Shown: positions 793 through 39,150 of the stretch, piece after piece | How positions within the stretch are numbered: the first letter of the stretch is position 1 | Layout: every line of letters begins with the position of its first letter | Assembly (NCBI RefSeq): GCF_003018115.1 | Contig: NZ_CP027457.1 | DNA length: 64,000 bases | Strand: one strand, 5' to 3' | Source: Escherichia coli | GTDB taxonomy: Bacteria > Pseudomonadota > Gammaproteobacteria > Enterobacterales > Enterobacteriaceae | The notes under the pieces: generated by a model | Databases searched by the model: none | What the model was told of the DNA's origin: nothing | Seen by the model: only the letters and a program-made list of their open reading frames with translations | Position numbers and translations under genes: made by a program

Positions 793-1839
793 TTAATGCT
801 CTGTCGCCAATCTGTCGCCATTGTAGGTCAACGAAGGTTGAGCCTTCCCTTTGTTTGTTATAATTTCATCAAAGATAGCTGGATTATTATCTTTCAGTAA
901 TCTTGCTAGTATAATGATTTGCCCAGACGAGCCATCATCCTTGAATGAAAGGAAATTATCGGTAATATCAAGAATATCAATGGTAAATTTGAAGTAAGTT
1001 TCAATTGTATCGCCAAGCTCAATGCTGGACATGAAGTTAGTAACCATTTCATATCCATCAAAGTATAAAGTTGCATGTTCATTTAACTCCATTGGAGTTA
1101 GGCAAAGCATTCGATTAAGTTCGGATAAGTGTTTTTCTATTGAATGAAGAGATTGCATTTGACGGATTAAAACTTCGTCAAACTGAGAGCCATGATTAGA
1201 TGAATGTATCTTCTCTAGGTTTTTTAGTATATCAACCCAGTGATTATTCACTTCACGTATGTATTCTTTATCTGTATTTTTAGGCCGTCCCTTCTCTGGT
1301 GAGCTATTTATGAAAATATATCTATATAGATGTATTGGGTAGTTAATTTTATAACTTATCTCTTTAGTACCATAATGACGTTCGCGTTTAATGGTTTTGT
1401 TAGGTAAATTGGTGAAATAATCAGTAACGAACTTTAGATGGCTATAGTAGCTATCAGATAGATTCTTTTGCTTGGTTTCCTCAATTTGTCGGTTTGTTTG
1501 AACTGTGCGGTGTATGTTTGCTACGACAGCAACAAATGGTATGGACAAAGAAAGTAAGGCGATAGGAAGCTTGCTAATTGCAATGAAATTATTAAAGCCC
1601 TCACTATCAAATTGAGGGGAATGTCCAAGCCAGGAAAATATACCAAAGTATATCGCTGAAAATACAGGAATCCTAAGTGATTGTTTAAATAAGTATTGAC
1701 TTGTTAATGGCCTTTCATCCATGTTAAAGCCTTTTTTTGATACGCATAGATATAATTCAAGGCATATATATAAAAAATATATTATGATAAGTAAGTACGA
1801 TATCCATGGGTATTGTTGGATATAGTTATTAACAAACAC
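793..1839 (-). CDS. hypothetical membrane protein (about 3 N-terminal TM helices plus ~230-aa soluble domain); AT-rich cargo between int and attL
   Basis: 348-codon ORF with GTG start at 1837-1839 preceded by GGAG; hydrophobic segments WISYLLIIIYFLYICLELYL, IPVFSAIYFGIFSWLG, LPIALLSLSIPFVAVVANI; AT-rich relative to phage backbone; no recognisable catalytic motif. Confidence 0.55.
   Translation of the reverse strand: MFVNNYIQQYPWISYLLIIIYFLYICLELYLCVSKKGFNMDERPLTSQYLFKQSLRIPVFSAIYFGIFSWLGHSPQFDSEGFNNFIAISKLPIALLSLSIPFVAVVANIHRTVQTNRQIEETKQKNLSDSYYSHLKFVTDYFTNLPNKTIKRERHYGTKEISYKINYPIHLYRYIFINSSPEKGRPKNTDKEYIREVNNHWVDILKNLEKIHSSNHGSQFDEVLIRQMQSLHSIEKHLSELNRMLCLTPMELNEHATLYFDGYEMVTNFMSSIELGDTIETYFKFTIDILDITDNFLSFKDDGSSGQIIILARLLKDNNPAIFDEIITNKGKAQPSLTYNGDRLATEH
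801..821. repeat. tandem direct repeats CTGTCGCCA(A/T), candidate integrase arm-type (P') sites
   Basis: CTGTCGCCAAT CTGTCGCCAT about 95-115 bp from the core; same 10-mer occurs as an inverted pair at 34808..34846 near attR. Confidence 0.4.
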
Positions 1840-2868
1840 TTTCTAATTTTCTCCATCCAAGGTTAGCAAGAGGATTTTTGGTTACAGCATCTTCCAGATG
1901 GTCGGGAGCGAAGTGGGCGTAAATCATTGTCATTTTTATATCGACATGGCCCAGAATATCGCGCAGCACCAGTATGTTTCCGCCATTCATCATAAAGTGA
2001 CTTGCAAATGTATGTCGTAATACGTGTGTGCATTGCCCTTCTGGTAGCTCGATGCCAGCTCGTTTTACCGCACGTTCAAAAGCTTTCCTACAAGGTGTAA
2101 ATAATTTTCCCCTATTCTTAGGCAGTTCTTCATATAAATCCTTTGAAATAGGCACTGTTCGGTTTTTCTTTCCTTTAGTCTTGGTATAAGTGATACGGTA
2201 TTTTGACACCTGATGACTCTGCAGGTTTTCGGCTTCGCTCCAGCGTGCGCCGGTGGCCAAGCATATTTTTGCAATCATCAGCAGACTGGGGCTTTGAGAA
2301 TCAGCACAGGCATCCAGCAGACGTTTAATTTCTTCCGGGGTCAGGAACGCCAATTCACCCTCAGCAATTTTAAATGTTGGCAGCCCAGCAAGCGGGTTGG
2401 GGGCTGCCAGTGGCCCAGCTTTTTCAGTGTACCAAAAACAGATGATAGGTTGCGCTGTTCAAGATTTACCGTGCGGGGCTTAACGGGCGACATAAGCGTG
2501 CCATCTTCATTTCGTACTTCACCTTTTAACCGTGCTTCGCGGTATTTCGTAAACTCACCAGCTGTCAGTTCTGAGGCGATGGGATCGCCTAGACCATTAC
2601 AGATAATTCTAAGTTTCGCCATGAGGCGCTTGGGGTCTGCGAGTGTTTGACCATACAGGGAATACCACAGCTCAATTAATTCTGATAGATGTCGCCGATC
2701 TTCCTTTTCCCCTAGCCATGGTTTTTTGTTCACTTCTTCCATTGTGAAGCTTTCAAACGCAATGGCTTCGCCTTTGGTAGCAAATTGCTTACGCACGCGC
2801 TTACCATTGCGTCCATTGGGATAGCACTCACACAACCATTTTCCGTTCGGCTGTTTTCTGATGGTCAT
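1829..2868 (-). pseudogene. int: P2-family tyrosine integrase, interrupted by an apparent 1-nt frameshift in a G5 run (2399..2403)
   Basis: Two overlapping ORFs (2341..2868 N-terminal part, 1829..2353 catalytic part with ...HVLRHTFASHF...MIYAHF motifs); adding one G/C to the homopolymer gives a continuous ...HWQPPNPLAGLPTFKIAEGELAFLTPEEI... reading. Confidence 0.7.
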
Positions 2869-2871
2869 AAG

Positions 2872-3510
2872 TTAGAGGTTCTTGATTACTTTGACTGCAC
2901 GTCCTAGGACTTCCACATCATCTACAGAACATTCAAATGAAGTGTCATCTTGGTTAACTACTATTTTGTTTCCGGGTATGCGCGCAATTTTGACGATGCT
3001 TTTAACTCCGTCCATATCGACTAACCAGAAGCCATTACTGACTTGTTTAACAGACGTATCCACTACAAAGCTATCATTAGCTGTTTTAACAAATAAAGCG
3101 TTGGATGAGTCACCATCGAGCAGGCTGCTATCAAGAAGAATTTCATCACTTGGCTGCAGTTCGCCGTTCTTCAGTTCAACACGTTTGATGCTAGGAGCGA
3201 CGATCTTAGAAAGTGGTCTTACAGTGACAGGAGGTTCATTTTTGAGATTTGTTTCTTCGTTCTCACACGCATACATATCTCCTTGACCAGTAGCCAGCCA
3301 TAGAAGGGAAACTCCTGTTTCAAGGGCACATTGGATTACCCATTCGGCAGGAAAGCTATCCCTTAAGTATCTGTTAGCCATAGTGCTTTTTGATACTTCC
3401 AGATGTTCGCAGAGCTGCTGTCGTGAGCTGAAGTTGTAAGCCTTAATAAGCCTATTAATCGCATCGCGCCCACCACTATCATTCCCCGCCTTGATTAAAC
3501 TCATAATCAA
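2872..3510 (-). CDS. cI: phage 186 CI-type immunity repressor (N-terminal HTH, C-terminal oligomerisation domain)
   Basis: 212-aa ORF divergent from apl/cII; position next to int; HTH-like SRQQLCEHLEVSKSTMANRYL. Confidence 0.75.
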   Translation of the reverse strand: MIMSLIKAGNDSGGRDAINRLIKAYNFSSRQQLCEHLEVSKSTMANRYLRDSFPAEWVIQCALETGVSLLWLATGQGDMYACENEETNLKNEPPVTVRPLSKIVAPSIKRVELKNGELQPSDEILLDSSLLDGDSSNALFVKTANDSFVVDTSVKQVSNGFWLVDMDGVKSIVKIARIPGNKIVVNQDDTSFECSVDDVEVLGRAVKVIKNL

Positions 3511-5446: not shown

Positions 5447-6300
5447 GCACCATCCTGAAATGGGCGGGTAATAAAACCGCCGTTATGTCCGAACTGAAAA
5501 AATACCTTCCTGCTGGCCCGCGACTGGTTGAACCTTTCGCGGGTTCCTGTGCAGTGATGATGGAGACGGATTACCCAAGCTATCTGGTAGCGGATATTAA
5601 TCCTGATTTAATCAACCTCTATAAAAAGGTTGCTGCTGATTGTGAGGTGTTTATATCTCGCGCCAGAATTTTGTTTGAGGAAGCAAACAGTGAGCTGGCT
5701 TATTACAACATAAGGCAGGAGTTTAATTACTCAACTGAAATTACTGATTTCATGAAATCGGTATATTTCCTGTATCTCAATCGTCATGGTTACCGTGGGT
5801 TATGTCGCTATAACAAGAGCGGGCATTTCAACATTCCCTACGGTAATTATAAAAAACCGTATTTCCCTGAAAAAGAAATTCGCGCATTTGCAGAGAAAGC
5901 CCAGCGGGCAACGTTTATCTGCGCCAGCTTTGATGAAACGCTGGCGATGTTGAAGGCGGGGGATGTGGTGTATTGCGATCCGCCGTATGACGGTACGTTT
6001 TCCGGCTATCACACTGATGGCTTCACTGAGGATGACCAGTATCACCTGGCATCCGTTCTTGAACATCGATCATCTGAAGGTCATCCGGTCATTGTTTCTA
6101 ACAGTGACACATCCCTGATTCGTTCGCTGTATCGCAATTTCACTCACCACTACATCAAGGCAAAACGCAGCATCGGCGTGTCGGCTGGCGAGAGTAAATC
6201 TGCAACAGAAATCATTGCTGTTTCCGGGGCGCGCTGCTGGGTGGGATTTGATCCTTCGCGTGGCGTGGATAGTTCTGCTGTGTACGAGGTGCGTGTATGA
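5443..6300 (+). CDS. dam: DNA adenine methyltransferase (Dam-like, probable GATC N6-adenine MTase), orphan
   Basis: Motif [10 protein letters not shown] and motif IV DPPY; strong similarity pattern to E. coli Dam ([24 protein letters not shown]); ATG 5443 with GGAGGTG RBS. Confidence 0.85.
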
Positions 6301-8711
6301 GTCATGACGATATGAGCAACTCTAGCGGCTTTAACGAGGCCGCAGCAGCATTTTCATGGAACGGCCCGAAAAAGGCCATTAACCCTTATCTGGACCCGGC
6401 GGAAGTTGCGCCGGAGTCTGCACTTTCAAACATGATCACTCTGTACGCTGCCGATAACGAGCAGGAACAGCTGCGCCGCGATGCACTGAGTGAGCAGGTC
6501 TGGGAGCGTTATTTCTTTAATGAATCCCGTGATCCTGTCCAGCGCGAAATGGAGCAGGATAAGCTCATTAGCCGCGCAAAGCTTGCGCATGAGCAGCAGC
6601 GTTTTAACCCGGACATGGTCATTCTGGCAGATGTCAGCGCCCAGCCTACCCACATCAGCAAGCCGCTGATGCAACGTATCGAATACTTCAGTAGCCTGGG
6701 CAGGCCAAAGGCTTATTCCTGCTATTTGCGTGAGACGATTAAGCCATGTCTGGAGCGACTGGATTGTGTACGCGACAGTCAGCTATCCGCTTCTTTCCGT
6801 TTTATGGCAAGCCATCAAGGGCTTGAGGGCCTGCTGATCCTGCCTGAAATGAGTCAGGATCAGGTAAAACGCCTGTCCACCCTGGTAGCAGCGCATATGA
6901 GCATGTGTCTTGAGGTCGCTTGTGGTGATTTGTATGCCACCGATGACGTTAAGCCAGAAGAAATCCGCAAGGCATGGGAAAAGGTGGCAGCGGAAACCCT
7001 GCGTCTGGATGTTATCCCGCCTGCGTTTGAGAAACTTCGTCGGAAAAGAAACCGCCGCAAACCAGTGCCCTATGAACTCATACCGGGTTCGATGGCACGT
7101 ATGCTTTGCGCCGACTGGTGGTATCGAAAATTGTGGAAGATGCGTTGCGAATGGCGGGAAGAGCAGTTGCGTGCTGTCTGTCTGGTCAGCAAAAAAGCAT
7201 CTCCCTATGTCAGCTATGAAGCAGTGACGCATAAACGTGAGCAGCGCCGCAAGTCGCTGGAGTTTTTCCGTTCTCATGAACTGGTGAACGAAGACGGAGA
7301 CACGCTGGATATGGAAGATGTGGTAAACGCCAGCAGCAGCAACCCGGCACATCGCCGAAATGAGATGATGGCCTGCGTTAAAGGTCTGGAGCTTATCGCG
7401 GAAATGCGTGGTGACTGCGCCGTTTTCTACACTATCACCTGTCCGTCACGTTTCCATTCCACGCTAAATAACGGCAGGCCCAACCCGACCTGGACAAATG
7501 CGACTGTAAGACAAAGCAGTGATTATCTGGTCGGCATGTTTGCTGCATTTCGTAAGGCGATGCACAAAGCCGGGTTGCGTTGGTATGGCGTGCGGGTGGC
7601 TGAGCCGCACCATGACGGTACTGTGCACTGGCATCTTATGTGCTTCATGCGTAAAAAAGACCGCCGCGCCATCACTGCATTACTGCGTAAGTTTGCCATC
7701 CGTGAAGACCGCGAGGAGCTGGGCAATAACACTGGGCCGCGCTTTAAGTCTGAGCTGATTAATCCGCGCAAAGGAACGCCGACAAGCTACATCGCGAAAT
7801 ATATCAGTAAGAACATTGACGGGCGTGGTCTGGCTGGCGAGATCAGCAAGGAAACGGGTAAATCTCTGCGTGATAACGCTGAATACGTGAATGCCTGGGC
7901 GTCTCTGCATCGTGTTCAGCAATTCCGCTTCTTTGGTATTCCGGGGCGTCAGACTTACCGTGAACTGCGATTGCTGGCTGGTCAGGCGGCAAGGCTACAG
8001 GGTGACAAAAAAGCAGGTGCGCCGGTACTGGATAACCCACGTCTTGATGCCATCCTGGCTGCTGCTGATGCTGGCTGTTTTGCGACCTACATCATGAAGC
8101 AGGGCGGCGTGCTGGTTCCCCGCAAATATCACCTTATCAGAACAGCTTATGAAATTAACGAAGAGCCGACCGCCTATGGCGATCACGGTATTCGTATTTA
8201 TGGCATCTGGTCACCCATTGCAGAGGGCAAGATCTGCACTCATGCAGTGAAGTGGAAAATGGTTAGTAAGGCCGTTGACGTTCAGGAGGCGGCAGCCGAC
8301 CAGGGCGCTTGCGCCCCTTGGACTCGTGGCAATAACTGTCCCCTTGCTGAAAATTTGAACCAACAAGGGAAAGACAAATCAGCTGATGGGGACTCCAGAA
8401 CGGATATTACCCGTATGAATGACAAGGAGTTGCACGATTACCTGCACAGTATGAGCAAAAAAGAGCGCCGGGAACTGGCTGCAAGGTTACGCCAGGTGAA
8501 ACCGAAACGGCGTAAAGACTACAAACAGCGAATTACAGACCATCAGCGACAGCAGCTCGTCTATGAACTGAAGTCCAGGGGATTTGATGGCAGCGAGAAA
8601 GAAGTCGATTTGCTCCTTCGCGGCGGCAGTATTCCGTCAGGAGCAGGCCTGCGTATCTTCTATCGGAACCAGCGTCTGAAGGAAGATGATAAGTGGCGGA
8701 ACCTGTATTAA
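6297..8711 (+). CDS. A: replication initiation endonuclease (P2 gpA-like rolling-circle initiator)
   Basis: 804-aa ORF at the end of the early operon; contains the gpA-family AKYISKN region and HWHLMCFM motif. Confidence 0.8.
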
Positions 8712-8805
8712 TTACGCGGGTTAACAATTCGTGCTCTTAATAATACCAGGCATATCAGGCCGATGAACGTAAAAAAACGTTTTACATCAGTAAGATTATT
8801 GTATA

Positions 8806-8821
8806 CTGTAAATATAAACAG
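8806..8821 (+). promoter_or_regulatory. LexA box (SOS operator) CTGTAAATATAAACAG
   Basis: Perfect CTG-N10-CAG with AT-rich centre about 45 bp upstream of the 8864 start; weaker second copy GTGGTTATGTATACAG at 8821..8836. Confidence 0.7.
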
Positions 8822-8863
8822 TGGTTATGTATACAGTATTGTTTTGGTGTCATAGGAGGAAAG

Positions 8864-9052
8864 ATGCAGGACTATTTTTTGGAGTCTTTGAAGCTCCAGC
8901 GCATTGATTTTTTTCTTAAGCTTGTAGCGGCTAGTGAGTGTAGTGATGAAGAGAAGGGGCTGGCTCTGCAGTGGGTTTCTGAATTGACTGATGAACTCAT
9001 GGCAAAAATCAGAAGCCACGAATACAACCGCTCAATGGATGTCATCAGCTGA
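8864..9052 (+). CDS. small SOS-inducible protein, possible Tum-like antirepressor
   Basis: 62-aa ORF with AGGAGG RBS directly downstream of the LexA box; 186-like position after gene A. Confidence 0.45.
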   Translation: MQDYFLESLKLQRIDFFLKLVAASECSDEEKGLALQWVSELTDELMAKIRSHEYNRSMDVIS

Positions 9053-9062
9053 GGTGACTTTT

Positions 9063-9296
9063 ATGCGCATTGAAATAATGATCGATAAAGAGCAGAAGAT
9101 TAGCCAGTCTACCCTGGACGCCCTTGAATCCGAGCTTTACCGCAATCTGCGCCCCCTGTATCCCAAAACGGTAATTCGCATTCGCAAAGGTAGCTCTAAC
9201 GGTGTGGAACTAACCGGACTGCAACTGGATGAAGAAAGAAAACAAGTGATGAAAATTATGCAGAAGGTGTGGGAGGACGACAGCTGGCTGCATTAA
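9063..9296 (+). CDS. DinI-family protein
   Basis: 77 aa from ATG 9063 (RBS GAGGTG); MRIEIMIDKEQ...WEDDSWLH resembles DinI (MRIEVTI...W..ADDW). Confidence 0.7.
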   Translation: MRIEIMIDKEQKISQSTLDALESELYRNLRPLYPKTVIRIRKGSSNGVELTGLQLDEERKQVMKIMQKVWEDDSWLH

Positions 9297-9488
9297 GAAA
9301 TGTTGCCCCCAGGAGGATTCATTCTGATGGGGGCTAGTTTGGGCAATGAGTGAAATAAGGCGTAAGGTGGGCGGTTATTTTGATAAGTGATCGTCCGCTT
9401 TGTGTCAGAAGCAGAAGCGGGAGTGTCTGAGACTCTCTAAAAGTTGATGATTCACTTACAAAACCATTTTCCTGATGGATGCTTACAC

Positions 9489-9824
9489 TTACGAATGATC
9501 ATTCTGTTTAGTCTTCATGAGAAAATCCCGAATCTTTGCCAAGTTTGAATTTTCGGGGATTGAATCCATGTACGGATCACGCTCAAACACTAATTGCTCA
9601 GATTCAACGAAAGCCTGCCACTCTACTGGGTCTAGCTCAAATCCCATTGCTGTCATATCACTTTCATCTTCCCCCTCGATCCAGTGGACTAAATAAAACA
9701 ATTCATCATCAGGAGAATCATCCTCACCATCAACAATATCAACATCGGTTACAGTGATACGTAGGGTGGGATCGATTTTTGAGACATAAATTCCTAACTG
9801 TGGTATAGGGGGAATATTGTTCAT
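9489..9824 (-). CDS. hypothetical highly acidic small protein (about 26 D/E in 111 aa), candidate DNA mimic, anti-restriction or immunity factor
   Basis: Strong RBS AAGGAG 6 nt before ATG (9822-9824); divergent from the DUF262 gene across the cos region; AT-rich. Confidence 0.6.
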   Translation of the reverse strand: MNNIPPIPQLGIYVSKIDPTLRITVTDVDIVDGEDDSPDDELFYLVHWIEGEDESDMTAMGFELDPVEWQAFVESEQLVFERDPYMDSIPENSNLAKIRDFLMKTKQNDHS

Positions 9825-10165
9825 GGAAACTCCTTTTATTGGTGTTTGCTATTTGAATAAAAATACGCCAAACAGAGTGTTAACTGTGAATATGGAAAGA
9901 ATCGTTGTAAGTACCCCACTTAGGTGTCCCATTCTATTTTAGAGGTTCTCGTGCATATGGATTATGTTATCTGAAAGTTAACTTCCGCTTCCCGTTCACA
10001 GCGAACATTCATCTTTGTAAACCCGTATGATCCGTTTTTCAAGTGGCCATTCAGATACGGATTTTCACTTCCTTGACAGTGCATGACTATGCTGCATGAA
10101 ATCGCATGATCGATTGAGGATCGTCTTTGCTCAGATCCGCCAGAACTGGCGGGCTTTTGCTCATG

Positions 10166-10181
10166 TCATGCATGTGCATGA
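10166..10181. repeat. perfect palindrome TCATGCA-TG-TGCATGA beside cos; related GCATGA direct repeats at 10081, 10094, 10104
   Basis: Read directly; candidate terminase or regulator binding site. Confidence 0.4.
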
Positions 10182-10203
10182 AAACCACTGCATAAAGCGG
10201 GCA

Positions 10204-10222
10204 GGCGTGGCGGGGATACGAG
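10204..10222. other. candidate cos cohesive-end site GGCGTGGCGGGGATACGAG
   Basis: First 13 nt match the P2/186 cohesive-end sequence as recalled (GGCG(A/T)GGCGGGGAAAGCA...); lies between the right-end tum region and Q as in P2/186. Confidence 0.4.
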
Positions 10223-10356
10223 CGCGCTCTGATATGAAAATCTGAACAAAAAATTACAAAATGGTATCTTTTTGTTGCTATCATCATTTTTGATGGTAAC
10301 TTAACCTTTTCAGTTTCTATATTATAAAATTCTATCCAGAAGAAGGAATTTGTTTC

Positions 10357-12138
10357 ATGGCTGAACTATTACCGCAAACAACTTCTATACAAACTATTTA
10401 TTCATGGTTTACTGAAGGTAAGATATTTGTTAATAGACGTTATCAACGAAAATTAGTTTGGACTGCAATAGAGAAACAAAAATTAATTGAATCCATTCAA
10501 AAAAAATATCCAATTCCTGCAGTTCTTCTCGCGGAAAGGGAAAATGATCCTGGCACATATGAAATAATTGATGGCCTACAAAGATTACATGCAATAATGT
10601 CTTTCATCGAAACAGGATATGAATCACTTGATGGAAAACGTTTTAATCTGGACGCTTTTCCCACAGCGAAAAATCGAGCGGATGAAGGTAAGTTTGTTGC
10701 AGTGAAAGCTGATAATCTTTTAAGTCAGCGTGAGGTTACTCAGTTATTGGATTATTCTCTTGCAATGTCCATTATGCGTAATGCGACTGAGAACGAAATA
10801 AATGATGTTTTTGATAGAATTAATACATACGGGCATAGACTTAGTGATCAAGAAAGGCGCCAGGCTGGTATACAAAATAAATTTTCAAATATGGTTAGGG
10901 ATATTGCCTGTTCTATCAGGGGGGATGTATCTGACGACATATTGCTTTTAGAGCAAATGCCGTCTATTAGCATTGATTTGCCACTAACTAAACATGGTTA
11001 CCAAATTCAGTCGGAAGAAGTATTTTGGGTAAAACATGGGATCTTACGTTCAACAGACCTTCGTGACAGTATGGATGAGCAATGCATTGCAGATATAGCA
11101 GCTTGTATTGTTGGAGGTAAGTTAATAGATCGTTCCAAAGATGCGCTTGATCAGATTTATAATAATGAAGATGAAGAGTATAGTCGTATTAGCTCTGCTA
11201 TTAATGTTTATGGTGAAGGAAAATTTGCAGAAGAGTTTAAATTCTGCATCCAGGAAATAACAAAAGTATGTAATAGTGACGGTGAAATTAAACTCAGGGA
11301 TTTAATCTTTACTAAACGTACTACAAATGCTTTCCCAGCCATATTTGCTGTGTTATTTATTGCTTTTCATGAATTACTCATTAAAGAAAATAAGAAGATT
11401 AATAATTATAAAGGTGTAAAAGACAATCTTAATAATATAGTCACTCGACTAGATACTAAAAGATCTGCTACTGGTGGGGAAGAGAGAAGAAAGAATATTA
11501 ATTCTATCATAGGCTTGATTAAAGATAACTTTATTGATAGCGCCGATAGCAGTCATATCTATAATTCTCACAATACGGTGGATATTGAGGATATTTTACG
11601 AAGATCTGAAATAGAGCTTGCAAATTATGAACTGAAACAGGGTTTGTTGATGTTAGGCGGAGAGCGAACTATTGATGATGGCATTCATGAGAAAATATTC
11701 TCCACAATTTGTGCTATTGCTAACATCGGTAAAGGTAACAAGAACGGTGTAGTTGGTAAGTTATTGCTTGGTGTAACAGATAAACCAAGTGATACAAGTA
11801 GAGTAAAAGAGCTTGATGATATAGATGCACATGTAGTTGGTGAGAGAAGTGTTGTTGGTGTTAAAAGAGAAGCTATTAAACTCGGCATATCAATGGAAGA
11901 ATATTATAGACGTTTTTGCGATGAGTTGAAAAAATCTGCTTTGAGTGAGCCTCTTAAATCACAAGTGGTGAGTTTGATTGACTATAATGACTTTTATGGT
12001 TATGGAGTTATAGTTATTACAATTCCACTTCTAGCATCTTATTCTAGTTATGATGGGGATATTTATTATCGTGCTGGCGATAATACCGTAAAAGCAACAG
12101 TTATCGAAGCAGCAGATATTGCAACACGTTTTAAATGA
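10357..12138 (+). CDS. DUF262 (ParB/GmrS-like NTPase/nuclease-fold) N-domain fused to Schlafen/AlbA_2-like C-domain; candidate anti-phage defence protein
   Basis: 593 aa; N-terminal RRYQRKLVW and IIDGLQRLHA motifs (DUF262 signature); C-terminal ELANYELKQ...ICAIANIGKGNKNGVVGKLLLGVTD...IYYRAGDNT resembles AlbA_2/Schlafen core; no H-N-H/DUF1524 motif; AT-rich; between cos and portal gene. Confidence 0.7.
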   Translation: MAELLPQTTSIQTIYSWFTEGKIFVNRRYQRKLVWTAIEKQKLIESIQKKYPIPAVLLAERENDPGTYEIIDGLQRLHAIMSFIETGYESLDGKRFNLDAFPTAKNRADEGKFVAVKADNLLSQREVTQLLDYSLAMSIMRNATENEINDVFDRINTYGHRLSDQERRQAGIQNKFSNMVRDIACSIRGDVSDDILLLEQMPSISIDLPLTKHGYQIQSEEVFWVKHGILRSTDLRDSMDEQCIADIAACIVGGKLIDRSKDALDQIYNNEDEEYSRISSAINVYGEGKFAEEFKFCIQEITKVCNSDGEIKLRDLIFTKRTTNAFPAIFAVLFIAFHELLIKENKKINNYKGVKDNLNNIVTRLDTKRSATGGEERRKNINSIIGLIKDNFIDSADSSHIYNSHNTVDIEDILRRSEIELANYELKQGLLMLGGERTIDDGIHEKIFSTICAIANIGKGNKNGVVGKLLLGVTDKPSDTSRVKELDDIDAHVVGERSVVGVKREAIKLGISMEEYYRRFCDELKKSALSEPLKSQVVSLIDYNDFYGYGVIVITIPLLASYSSYDGDIYYRAGDNTVKATVIEAADIATRFK

Positions 12139-37403: not shown

Positions 37404-39065
37404 TTACGCCGCAAGCAGTTCTTTCGCATTCGCCAGTGTGTTACGTGTGACTTCACTGCCACCAAGCAGGCGCGCCAGCTCTTGTAACCGCGCTTTTTTA
37501 TTCAGGGATTGCATATGCGTTTCTGTCATCGCACCATCGGTTTCTTTGCTGACAAAATAGTGTTGATGACCACATCCCGCGACTTGTGGCAGGTGGGTAA
37601 CACACATCACCTGAGTTGATTCGCCGAGTTGACGCAGCAGTTTGCCGACAACTGCCGCTGTTGGACCGCTAATCCCTACATCCACTTCATCAAAAATCAG
37701 TGCCGGGGTTTCCATTTTACGCGCCGTGATGACCTGAATTGCCAATGCGATGCGGGACAATTCACCACCGGATGCGACTTTGGCAATAGGCTGCATTGGC
37801 TGACCTGGGTTGGTGGTTACCCGAAACTCAATACGATCGGCGCCGTCAGCGCCCAGGTGATGCTCGTCAAATTTGACATCAATCGTAAACTGCCCATGCG
37901 GCATTGAGAGCGCATGCATACTGTCGGTGATCAGCTGTGCAAGTTCTTCTGCATAATGCTGGCGTTGCTGGTGTAATGCGCGCGCCGTTTCCAGTGCCTG
38001 CTGATGATGTTTCGTTACCGCCAGCGCGAGCGTTTCTTGTGAGTCGGCCTGATCGTCCAGTTGCTGCTGTTCTTCCAGTAGCGACTGGTAATACTGTGGC
38101 AATGTCTCAGGGCTGACGTGATGTTTACGTGCCAGCGAAATCTGTTTTGAGATGCGCTGTTCAAGTTCAAACAGTCGGTTGGGATCGAGATCCAGACGAT
38201 CGCAGTAGTGGCGCAGTTCGTCGCTGGCTTCAACAATCTGGATGGTAGCTTCTTCCAGCATATCAAGTACGCCGGACAGTTTGCTGTCCATGCCAATCAA
38301 TTCGCTCACCAGTTGTTTAGCCGTGTAAAGCTGACTTTGCAGGTTTGCGTCTTCACCGTCGGCCATTAATGCCAATGCATTCTGGCTGGTGGTCAGCAAT
38401 TGACCGCTGTTCGCCAGACGTTTGTACTCTTCGTCGATTTGCTCAAACTCTCCGGGCTGCGGATTAAATTCGTTAAGTTCTTTTAATTGGTATTGCAGCA
38501 GTTCCGCACGGGCAGCGCGTTCCTGACTTAACTGTTGATGATGCGCGAGGTCACGGCAGCTTTGATGCCACAACTGATAACGTGCGGTCATTTCCTGGAG
38601 TAGAGAGGTTTCATTGGCATAGCCATCAAGCAGGAACTTTTGGTGCTCGGGTTTGGTGAGTAACTGATGAGCGTGCTGACCATGGATCTGAATCAGCAAC
38701 TGACCCAGTTCGCGCAGTTGTGACAGAGGAACAGCTGTACCGTTGATGAAACCACGGGAGCGACCATCGCTGCTGATCACGCGACGAAGCAAACATTCAT
38801 GCCCGTCTTCAAGCTGGTTTTCTTCCAGCCAGCGCAGAGCCGCTGGCGTATCTTTCAGAGAAAAACGGGCGCACAGGTCAGCGCGAGCAGCGCCGGTACG
38901 CACCATGTCGGCTTCAGCGCGACCACCGAGACAAAGACCGAGGGCATCTATTGCAATAGATTTACCCGCGCCGGTCTCGCCAGTTATTACGGTCATGCCG
39001 CTATGAAAATCAATCTCAAGCTCACGAACGATAGCAAAGTTGCTGATGGTCAGTTGTGCCAACAT
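37404..39065 (-). CDS. recN: DNA repair protein RecN
   Basis: 553 aa; Walker A GETGAGKS; long coiled-coil. Confidence 0.95.
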
Positions 39066-39150
39066 AGTCGTTTTCCTGTATGAAAAACCATTACTGTTAT
39101 TGTGTACAGTATAAACTGGTTTTATATACAGTAAAGAGGCTGGCGTAAAA

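Follow-up and report, generated by a model that had tools for sequence, protein, structure and literature searches.

A LexA-boxed tumA–dinI operon, very probably the SOS induction module of a Fels-2-type P2-family prophage in Escherichia coli

The stretch of Escherichia coli DNA analyzed here (64 kb, hereafter the window) carries a P2-family prophage in which two small genes follow replication gene A on the same strand, behind a pair of overlapping SOS boxes. The elements of this region are as follows.

6297-8711, plus strand: gene A, replication (Pfam Phage_GPA, E=6e-128)
8781-8807, plus strand: putative sigma-70 promoter, -35 TTTACA at 8781-8786 and -10 TATACT at 8802-8807, 15-nt spacer, hexamers read by eye
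8806-8821: SOS box 1 (distal), CTGTAAATATAAACAG, overlapping the -10 hexamer and 43 nt upstream of the 62-aa open reading frame (ORF)
8821-8836: SOS box 2 (proximal, imperfect), GTGGTTATGTATACAG, overlapping box 1 by 1 nt
8864-9052, plus strand: tumA, 62-aa putative antirepressor, Shine-Dalgarno sequence AGGAGG at 8854-8859
9041-9058, plus strand: small hairpin GTCATC...GGTGAC of six pairs followed by TTTTAT, spanning the tumA stop and the dinI Shine-Dalgarno sequence
9063-9296, plus strand: DinI-family gene (tumB equivalent), 77 aa, ATG at 9063, Shine-Dalgarno sequence GAGGTGA
9305-9334, plus strand: GC-rich hairpin GCCCCCA...TGGGGGC, a possible operon end

A sequence-only reading of this DNA had placed a LexA box, a 62-aa ORF and a DinI-family gene after gene A, and all of them are found where it put them, with 152 nt between the end of gene A (8711) and the start of tumA (8864). 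The same reading had likened the region to the tum region of phage 186. This likeness holds: the 186 annotation shows, after gene A, the promoter p95, a LexA site and a 146-aa tum, and the order gene A, LexA-boxed promoter, 62-aa ORF and DinI gene in the window corresponds to that in 186, PsP3, Fels-2 and the E. coli HS prophage DuoHS. At the DNA level, many P2-family phages that infect E. coli, Klebsiella and Salmonella match a 700-bp region at ~96-98% identity (Fels-2 at ~97%). Of 5426 complete E. coli genomes, 1124 (about one fifth) have the module, E. coli B and BL21 among them, and it also occurs in many Klebsiella and Salmonella prophages.

Homology to Fels-2 and to the Klebsiella phages breaks off at ~9294-9306 and variable cargo lies beyond, and we therefore place the end of the module at dinI. 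Among 80 loci from IMG/VR, the cargo after dinI includes STM2726-like genes in seven and HS-type genes in seven, while that of the window is nearly unique; the cargo of Fels-2 likewise differs from it. A conserved third operon gene was considered and dropped, as 186 Orf97 is related neither to Fels-2 STM2726 nor to any part of the window, and no homologue of it follows dinI. The hairpin at 9305-9334 is unconvincing as an intrinsic terminator, with a weak U-tract and a z-score of -1.55 that is not significant. An Rfam scan of 8400-10500 found nothing.

The distal SOS box had been called a perfect LexA box. It is present at 8806-8821, and it is perfect in its CTGT-N8-ACAG core only, the 20-mer TACTGTAAATATAAACAGTG (8804-8823) agreeing with the consensus TACTGTATATATATACAGTA at 17 of 20 positions. 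This 20-mer is the sole site in the 64 kb within three mismatches of the LexA consensus (expected 0.00, from 100 shuffles). The core alone occurs twice in the window against 0.74 expected, and its other occurrence, at 39094, sits among the three boxes that form the recN operator; recN is a genuine SOS gene and provides an internal positive control.

37404-39065, minus strand: host recN (NCBIfam equivalog, 1064 bits)
39070-39135: recN SOS boxes TACTGTATATAAAACCAGTT, TACTGTACACAATAACAGTA and TAATGGTTTTTCATACAGGA, the control for the LexA pattern search

Since the 20-mer is unique against an expectation of 0.00 and the only other core match is the recN operator, box 1 is not a chance match.

Box 2, which the sequence-only reading missed, forms together with box 1 a 37-bp palindrome (8803-8839). 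Phage 186 has one LexA box, at the box 2 position, where the window has two overlapping ones; the single boxes of both 186 and PsP3 align with box 2, not with box 1. Over the 80 IMG/VR loci, which comprise 61 distinct upstream sequences, box 1 is nearly invariant, and the ACAG of box 2 is kept in 79 despite a variable box 2 spacer and its location within the region's most variable stretch; the 80th locus has no box at all in the 75 nt inspected.

The closest likeness to this composite arrangement is found in colicin promoters. Their operators share the pattern CTGT-N8-xCAGTGG-N8-ACAG with a 1-nt overlap, and at 8806-8821 and 8821-8836 the window likewise has two 16-nt boxes that overlap by ~1 nt and whose inner half-sites share CAGTGG. 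Identity amounts to 81-85% over ~47 nt and runs base for base through ACTGTA-ATA-AA-CAGTGGTTAT---TACAGT, whereas no relationship extends to the -35 region or the downstream leader, and the gene driven is a toxin there and a putative phage antirepressor here. A 66-nt query of the Fels-2 operator matched more than 1100 plasmids, 805 of them mobilizable. Among the top-listed matches, those that are not prophage-like were mostly small (3-10 kb), and in the two plasmids that were opened the operator match lies ~40 nt upstream of colicin N (cna) and of a colicin E1-like gene. Colicin dual SOS boxes have been reported to bind two LexA dimers, with very tight repression (PMC2994835). By analogy, LexA would be expected to occupy both boxes in the window, and the double operator may confer a threshold-like, late SOS expression.

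The putative promoter hexamers are conserved in DuoHS and Fels-2 upon alignment. A consensus sigma-70 scan called no promoter at the tumA operon because the 15-nt spacer falls below 16 nt. The uncalled promoter, together with a core count that is not significant on its own, could be taken to mean that the LexA-box match has no regulatory role and that the operon is constitutive or controlled by CI. We consider this explanation extremely improbable: the uniqueness of the 20-mer, the recN operator as its sole companion core match, the alignment with colicin SOS operators and the retention of box 1 and the box 2 ACAG in 79 of 80 loci all speak against it, and so does the finding that lexA(Ind-) prevents the induction of DuoHS (PMC12055606).

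The 62-aa product of tumA is 100% identical to ECHS_RS04495, the "tum" of DuoHS, and 97% identical to Fels-2 STM2728. With 186 Tum it gives no alignment by pairwise BLASTP, the N-terminal halves being about 21-23% identical. Profile comparisons, modest in strength, do connect the two: residues 7-44 of 186 Tum match phrog_698, the PHROG family to which the ORF itself belongs (E=2.4e-5), the ORF matches phrog_1993, the family of PsP3 TumA and the 186 Tum N-terminus (E=0.002), and phrog_8554 is matched by both proteins. From these matches, the ORF is best viewed as remotely homologous to the N-terminal half of 186 Tum and as its counterpart in position. The earlier designation "Tum-like" is thus apt for that half only, and in the sense of a remote relationship that pairwise BLASTP does not recover. 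Neither Pfam nor NCBIfam has a family for the ORF, and the PDB contains no relative of it and no structure of any Tum N-terminal domain.

The exact TumA sequence occurs on at least 1000 contigs under the name "hypothetical protein"; UniRef and some phage records call it "levan regulatory protein" instead. Across RefSeq, PHROGs, Pfam and NCBIfam, the 62-aa antirepressor is listed as hypothetical or of unknown function, or is mislabelled. The practical value of the present analysis is one of annotation, as a genetically validated induction trigger is still poorly named in databases.

The second gene is readily classified. It matches Pfam PF06183 over profile positions 1-63 of 63 (E=6.6e-23, 81.3 bits against a cutoff of 24.2), and it is 41% identical to residues 71-145 of 186 Tum, the C-terminal half (E=3e-24). 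Against NCBIfam NF007893, the chromosomal DinI equivalog, it scores 42.7 bits, below the cutoff of 111. By its sequence it is a phage paralogue and not the host dinI; the exact sequence bears the UniRef name "DinI-like protein in retron Ec67" (RepID DINIR_ECOLX). The true start is most likely the ATG at 9063, and in the 80 IMG/VR loci the dinI start always lies 199 nt past that of tumA. We note that the mechanically called ORF (8991-9296, 101 aa) overlaps tumA, and that many Salmonella and E. coli records use the 101-aa version while others use 77 aa. Terminator-like hairpins such as that at 9041-9058 are not above chance (one found, 0.7 expected). This hairpin might couple the translation of dinI to the termination of tumA, or attenuate read-through; both suggestions are speculative.

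Comparison with known relatives shows how the two genes of the window relate to one. In 186, a single 146-aa Tum with internal starts fuses both halves, which in the window are encoded by separate ORFs (62 and 77 aa). The 186 SOS operon (p95, LexA site, tum, orf97) otherwise shares with the window its position after gene A, its LexA box, its DinI-like sequence and an opponent that is a 186-type CI without a protease domain. Lemire et al. 2011 describe 186 Tum as looking like an antirepressor fused to DinI, and state that in Fels-2 and PSP3 a stop codon divides tum into an upstream gene for the antirepressor and a downstream one for the DinI homologue (PMC3121763). In that paper the split-tum statement is credited to Bunny et al. 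2002 and to a personal communication from G. Christie, the PSP3 assignment being the personal communication and thus second-hand (PMC3121763).

Annotations of the phages agree with this description. PsP3 tumA is recorded as "similar to 5' end of 186 tum; UV induction of prophage" and tumB as "similar to dinI and 3' end of 186 tum"; in Fels-2, STM2728 is "hypothetical" and STM2726.1 (STM2727) is "DinI family, similar to PsP3 TumB". The architecture of both pairs, STM2728/STM2726.1 (STM2727) and PsP3 tumA/tumB, is identical to that of the window. However, PsP3 TumA is only ~22% identical to TumA of the window and belongs to another PHROG family, and the PsP3 CI has two HTH domains.

Genetic data come from the P2-like prophage DuoHS. 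Its TumA is identical to that of the window, its operator differs by 3 nt, all in the box 2 spacer, and it shares with BL21 one RefSeq DinI protein, WP_001217575.1. The two prophages differ in their integration, at the rcdA side in HS and at the ypjA side in the window, and in their downstream cargo. The Phollow paper reports that an in-frame Δtum (ECHS_RS04495) abolishes mitomycin C-induced lysis and virions of DuoHS, and that lexA(Ind-) likewise blocks mitomycin C-induced lysis and virion formation (PMC12055606). Mapped onto the window, the published deletion primers fall at 8846-8866 and 9050-9072; NHR24 and NHR28 join the ATG (8864) to the TGA (9050-9052) and leave intact GGTGACTTTTATG (the dinI start region) as well as the dinI Shine-Dalgarno sequence and gene. 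The sequence-only reading had proposed a prophage-induction test of 8864-9052, and this has effectively been done, as a loss of function, on the identical DuoHS protein. The DuoHS work addresses requirement only, and its passages on the deletion give neither sufficiency, complementation nor CI binding (PMC12055606).

Transcript data come from Salmonella TA100, which carries Fels-2. There, STM2726-2728 were scored as an operon responsive to the mutagen MX, and STM2727 rose 5.5- to 14.8-fold with MX, alongside recA, sulA and recN (PMC2225428). The proposal that induction is LexA-dependent and proceeds via an antirepressor is thus supported by the Δtum and lexA(Ind-) phenotypes of DuoHS, by the mutagen induction of the Fels-2 operon and by the published split-tum description.

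These data also bear on whether the antirepressor is the effector at all. The DinI half carries the strong and easily seen homology to 186 Tum, and GenBank labels all 186 tum products DinI-like, so that one could instead assign the effector function to the DinI-like protein, which would alter the RecA filament and thereby inactivate CI, e.g., by RecA-stimulated cleavage, the small ORF being a leader or accessory peptide. However, the DuoHS Δtum takes out the 62-aa ORF only and keeps the dinI Shine-Dalgarno sequence and gene, yet induction is abolished (PMC12055606), although a polar effect on dinI translation is possible. The 186 annotation states that full-length Tum inhibits CI DNA binding and that truncated DinI-like products "modulate SOS induction", which casts the latter as modulators, and the lack of an S24 peptidase domain in CI, described below, counts against a cleavage route. 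We regard a DinI-like effector as very unlikely, and retain TumA as the presumed antirepressor.

The presumed target of TumA is encoded on the opposite strand.

2872-3510, minus strand: CI immunity repressor, 186/Fels-2 type, presumed TumA target (Phage_CI_repr, E=3.9e-33; Phage_CI_C, E=1e-40)

CI matches PDB 2fjr, the 186 CI structure (E=2e-28), and is 93% identical to Fels-2 CI, and in Pfam it has no match to Peptidase_S24. A 186-type CI without S24 is consistent with induction by an antirepressor and not with autocleavage, in line with the earlier suggestion that autocleavage is not involved.

Sequence variation among the repressors suggests where TumA might contact CI. TumA is 98-100% identical in all 80 IMG/VR loci, whereas the 78 CI genes recovered from these loci represent more than 40 variants, a pairing that had escaped the sequence-only reading. 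Relative to CI of the window, these variants range from 59 to 100% identity in the N-terminal HTH domain and from 18 to 97% in the C-terminal oligomerisation domain, where the divergent ones drop as low as 18-30%. Of the 27 residues invariant over 44 CI variants, 22 fall in residues 12-73, including S38-K39-S40, R48-D49, F51-P52, W55, C59, E62-T63 and W69-L70. The N-terminal domains share an invariant SKS..A.R..RD.FP..W...C..ET motif, which 186 CI, the partner of a divergent Tum, lacks; it deviates at several of the invariant positions (RG.IS..F). DuoHS, whose TumA is identical to that of the window, has a CI that is 40% identical overall, the N-terminal domain reaching 71% and the C-terminal domain 25%. 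A near-invariant TumA alongside conserved N-terminal and divergent C-terminal CI domains suggests that TumA docks on the N-terminal domain, and we infer from these comparisons that it contacts the conserved CI DNA-binding domain.

186 Tum has been described as inhibiting or sequestering CI once LexA releases p95, and in the cited literature CI binding is demonstrated for 186 Tum only. We found no published demonstration that a split TumA binds CI directly; such binding is presumed here by homology. A similar logic is known from other phages. GfoA, GftA and FsoA of Gifsy-1, Gifsy-2 and Fels-1, and AntC of N15, are likewise small antirepressors under LexA repression; each binds a repressor that is not cleavable, and its gene shares a transcript with a dinI homologue (PMC3121763). 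No sequence relationship of these proteins to TumA was found, and their repressor family is different.

Taken together, the region is very probably the module through which the SOS response induces a P2-family prophage of the Fels-2 type (Felsduovirus, 186-like); in it, LexA controls a two-gene operon whose TumA acts against CI. In the lysogen, LexA dimers on the composite operator (8806-8836), which covers the -10 hexamer and the start of the promoter, would silence both genes. Upon DNA damage, active RecA would promote the self-cleavage of LexA and the operon would be transcribed, a derepression step documented at the transcript level in Fels-2 (PMC2225428) and genetically in DuoHS (PMC12055606). 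TumA would then inactivate CI by protein-protein contact, not by cleavage, and the early lytic promoter would be derepressed. The DinI-like product most likely tunes the activity of the RecA filament and, with it, how strong or how long the SOS signal is, and would not be an antirepressor itself; this role is suggested by family membership and by the 186 annotation of truncated Tum products. The prophage is thus expected to be inducible by DNA-damaging agents, SOS-inducing antibiotics included, through LexA and an antirepressor as opposed to repressor cleavage.

The tumA–dinI induction switch is an already described system, not a new one. Two points are modestly new: the operator is double, as in colicin promoters, and a single TumA is found alongside many CI immunity types. 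We tentatively extend this, with a confidence a shade short of even, to a "universal" TumA that docks on the CI DNA-binding domain, so that one SOS signal, or the TumA of one prophage, could cross-induce co-resident heteroimmune Fels-2-type prophages, while the double-LexA operator delays induction to severe damage. Cross-induction via one TumA, if true, would resemble the crosstalk of Gifsy antirepressors. The occurrence of one TumA with many CI types also offers a cheap handle on where Tum-type antirepressors contact repressors.

The integrase of the prophage is interrupted, and further ORFs were noted next to it and beyond dinI.

793-1839, minus strand: 348-aa ORF between the prophage end and int, no Pfam family, weak PADLOC match to "2TM effector" (E=2e-4)
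1829-2868, minus strand: integrase, split into 175-aa and 174-aa ORFs by a 1-bp deletion near 2406
9489-9824, minus strand: 111-aa ORF convergent with dinI (phrog_17127, unknown function)
10357-12138, plus strand: 593-aa protein (Pfam GmrSD_N/DUF262, E=1.6e-22; PADLOC NsnA, E=8e-31; PD-T4-2_A)

The integrase indel is seen in comparison with the intact 346-aa integrase of E. coli CFSAN051542, and its site lies outside a homopolymer. The gene may truly be a pseudogene, which would lock the prophage in place, or the split may be a sequencing error. With a genuine frameshift, derepression by the SOS response would not be followed by normal excision.

A prophage crippled in this way raises the alternative that the module is a lysogenic-conversion "moron", an additional SOS-regulated DinI that tunes host RecA, and that its link to induction via LexA is vestigial in this strain. 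Similarly, the defective prophage of E. coli B and BL21 has cII and gene A as partial pseudogenes and an intact, identical tumA and dinI, and Fels-2 STM2727 acts like an ordinary SOS gene on arrays (PMC2225428). In the window, however, CI, the Apl/Cox-like protein, CII, A and the morphogenesis genes are full length, and TumA should therefore still derepress the lytic operon; moreover, the identical TumA is needed for induction in DuoHS (PMC12055606). As a replacement for the induction module, the moron reading is in our judgment quite improbable; what it proposes adds to the main explanation.

The B/BL21 P2-like prophage, located at 866292-886992 in E. coli BL21(DE3), carries a tumA–dinI module and a CI identical to those of the window, and its cII and gene A are truncated pseudogenes while its capsid region is deleted. 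The persistence of an intact tumA–dinI beside decayed phage genes in BL21 indicates that the SOS module outlives the phage it once controlled.

The gene at 10357-12138 is probably anti-phage defence cargo; it lies between dinI and the portal gene, in a variable slot that is a hotspot of the P2 tin/old type. The ORF at 793-1839 may be cargo as well, at the int-proximal end. The convergent ORF at 9489-9824 is found in none of the 80 IMG/VR loci; it is also present beside the retron in the BL21 P2-like prophage (WP_001059831.1), where the same dinI-portal slot holds the retron St85 system.
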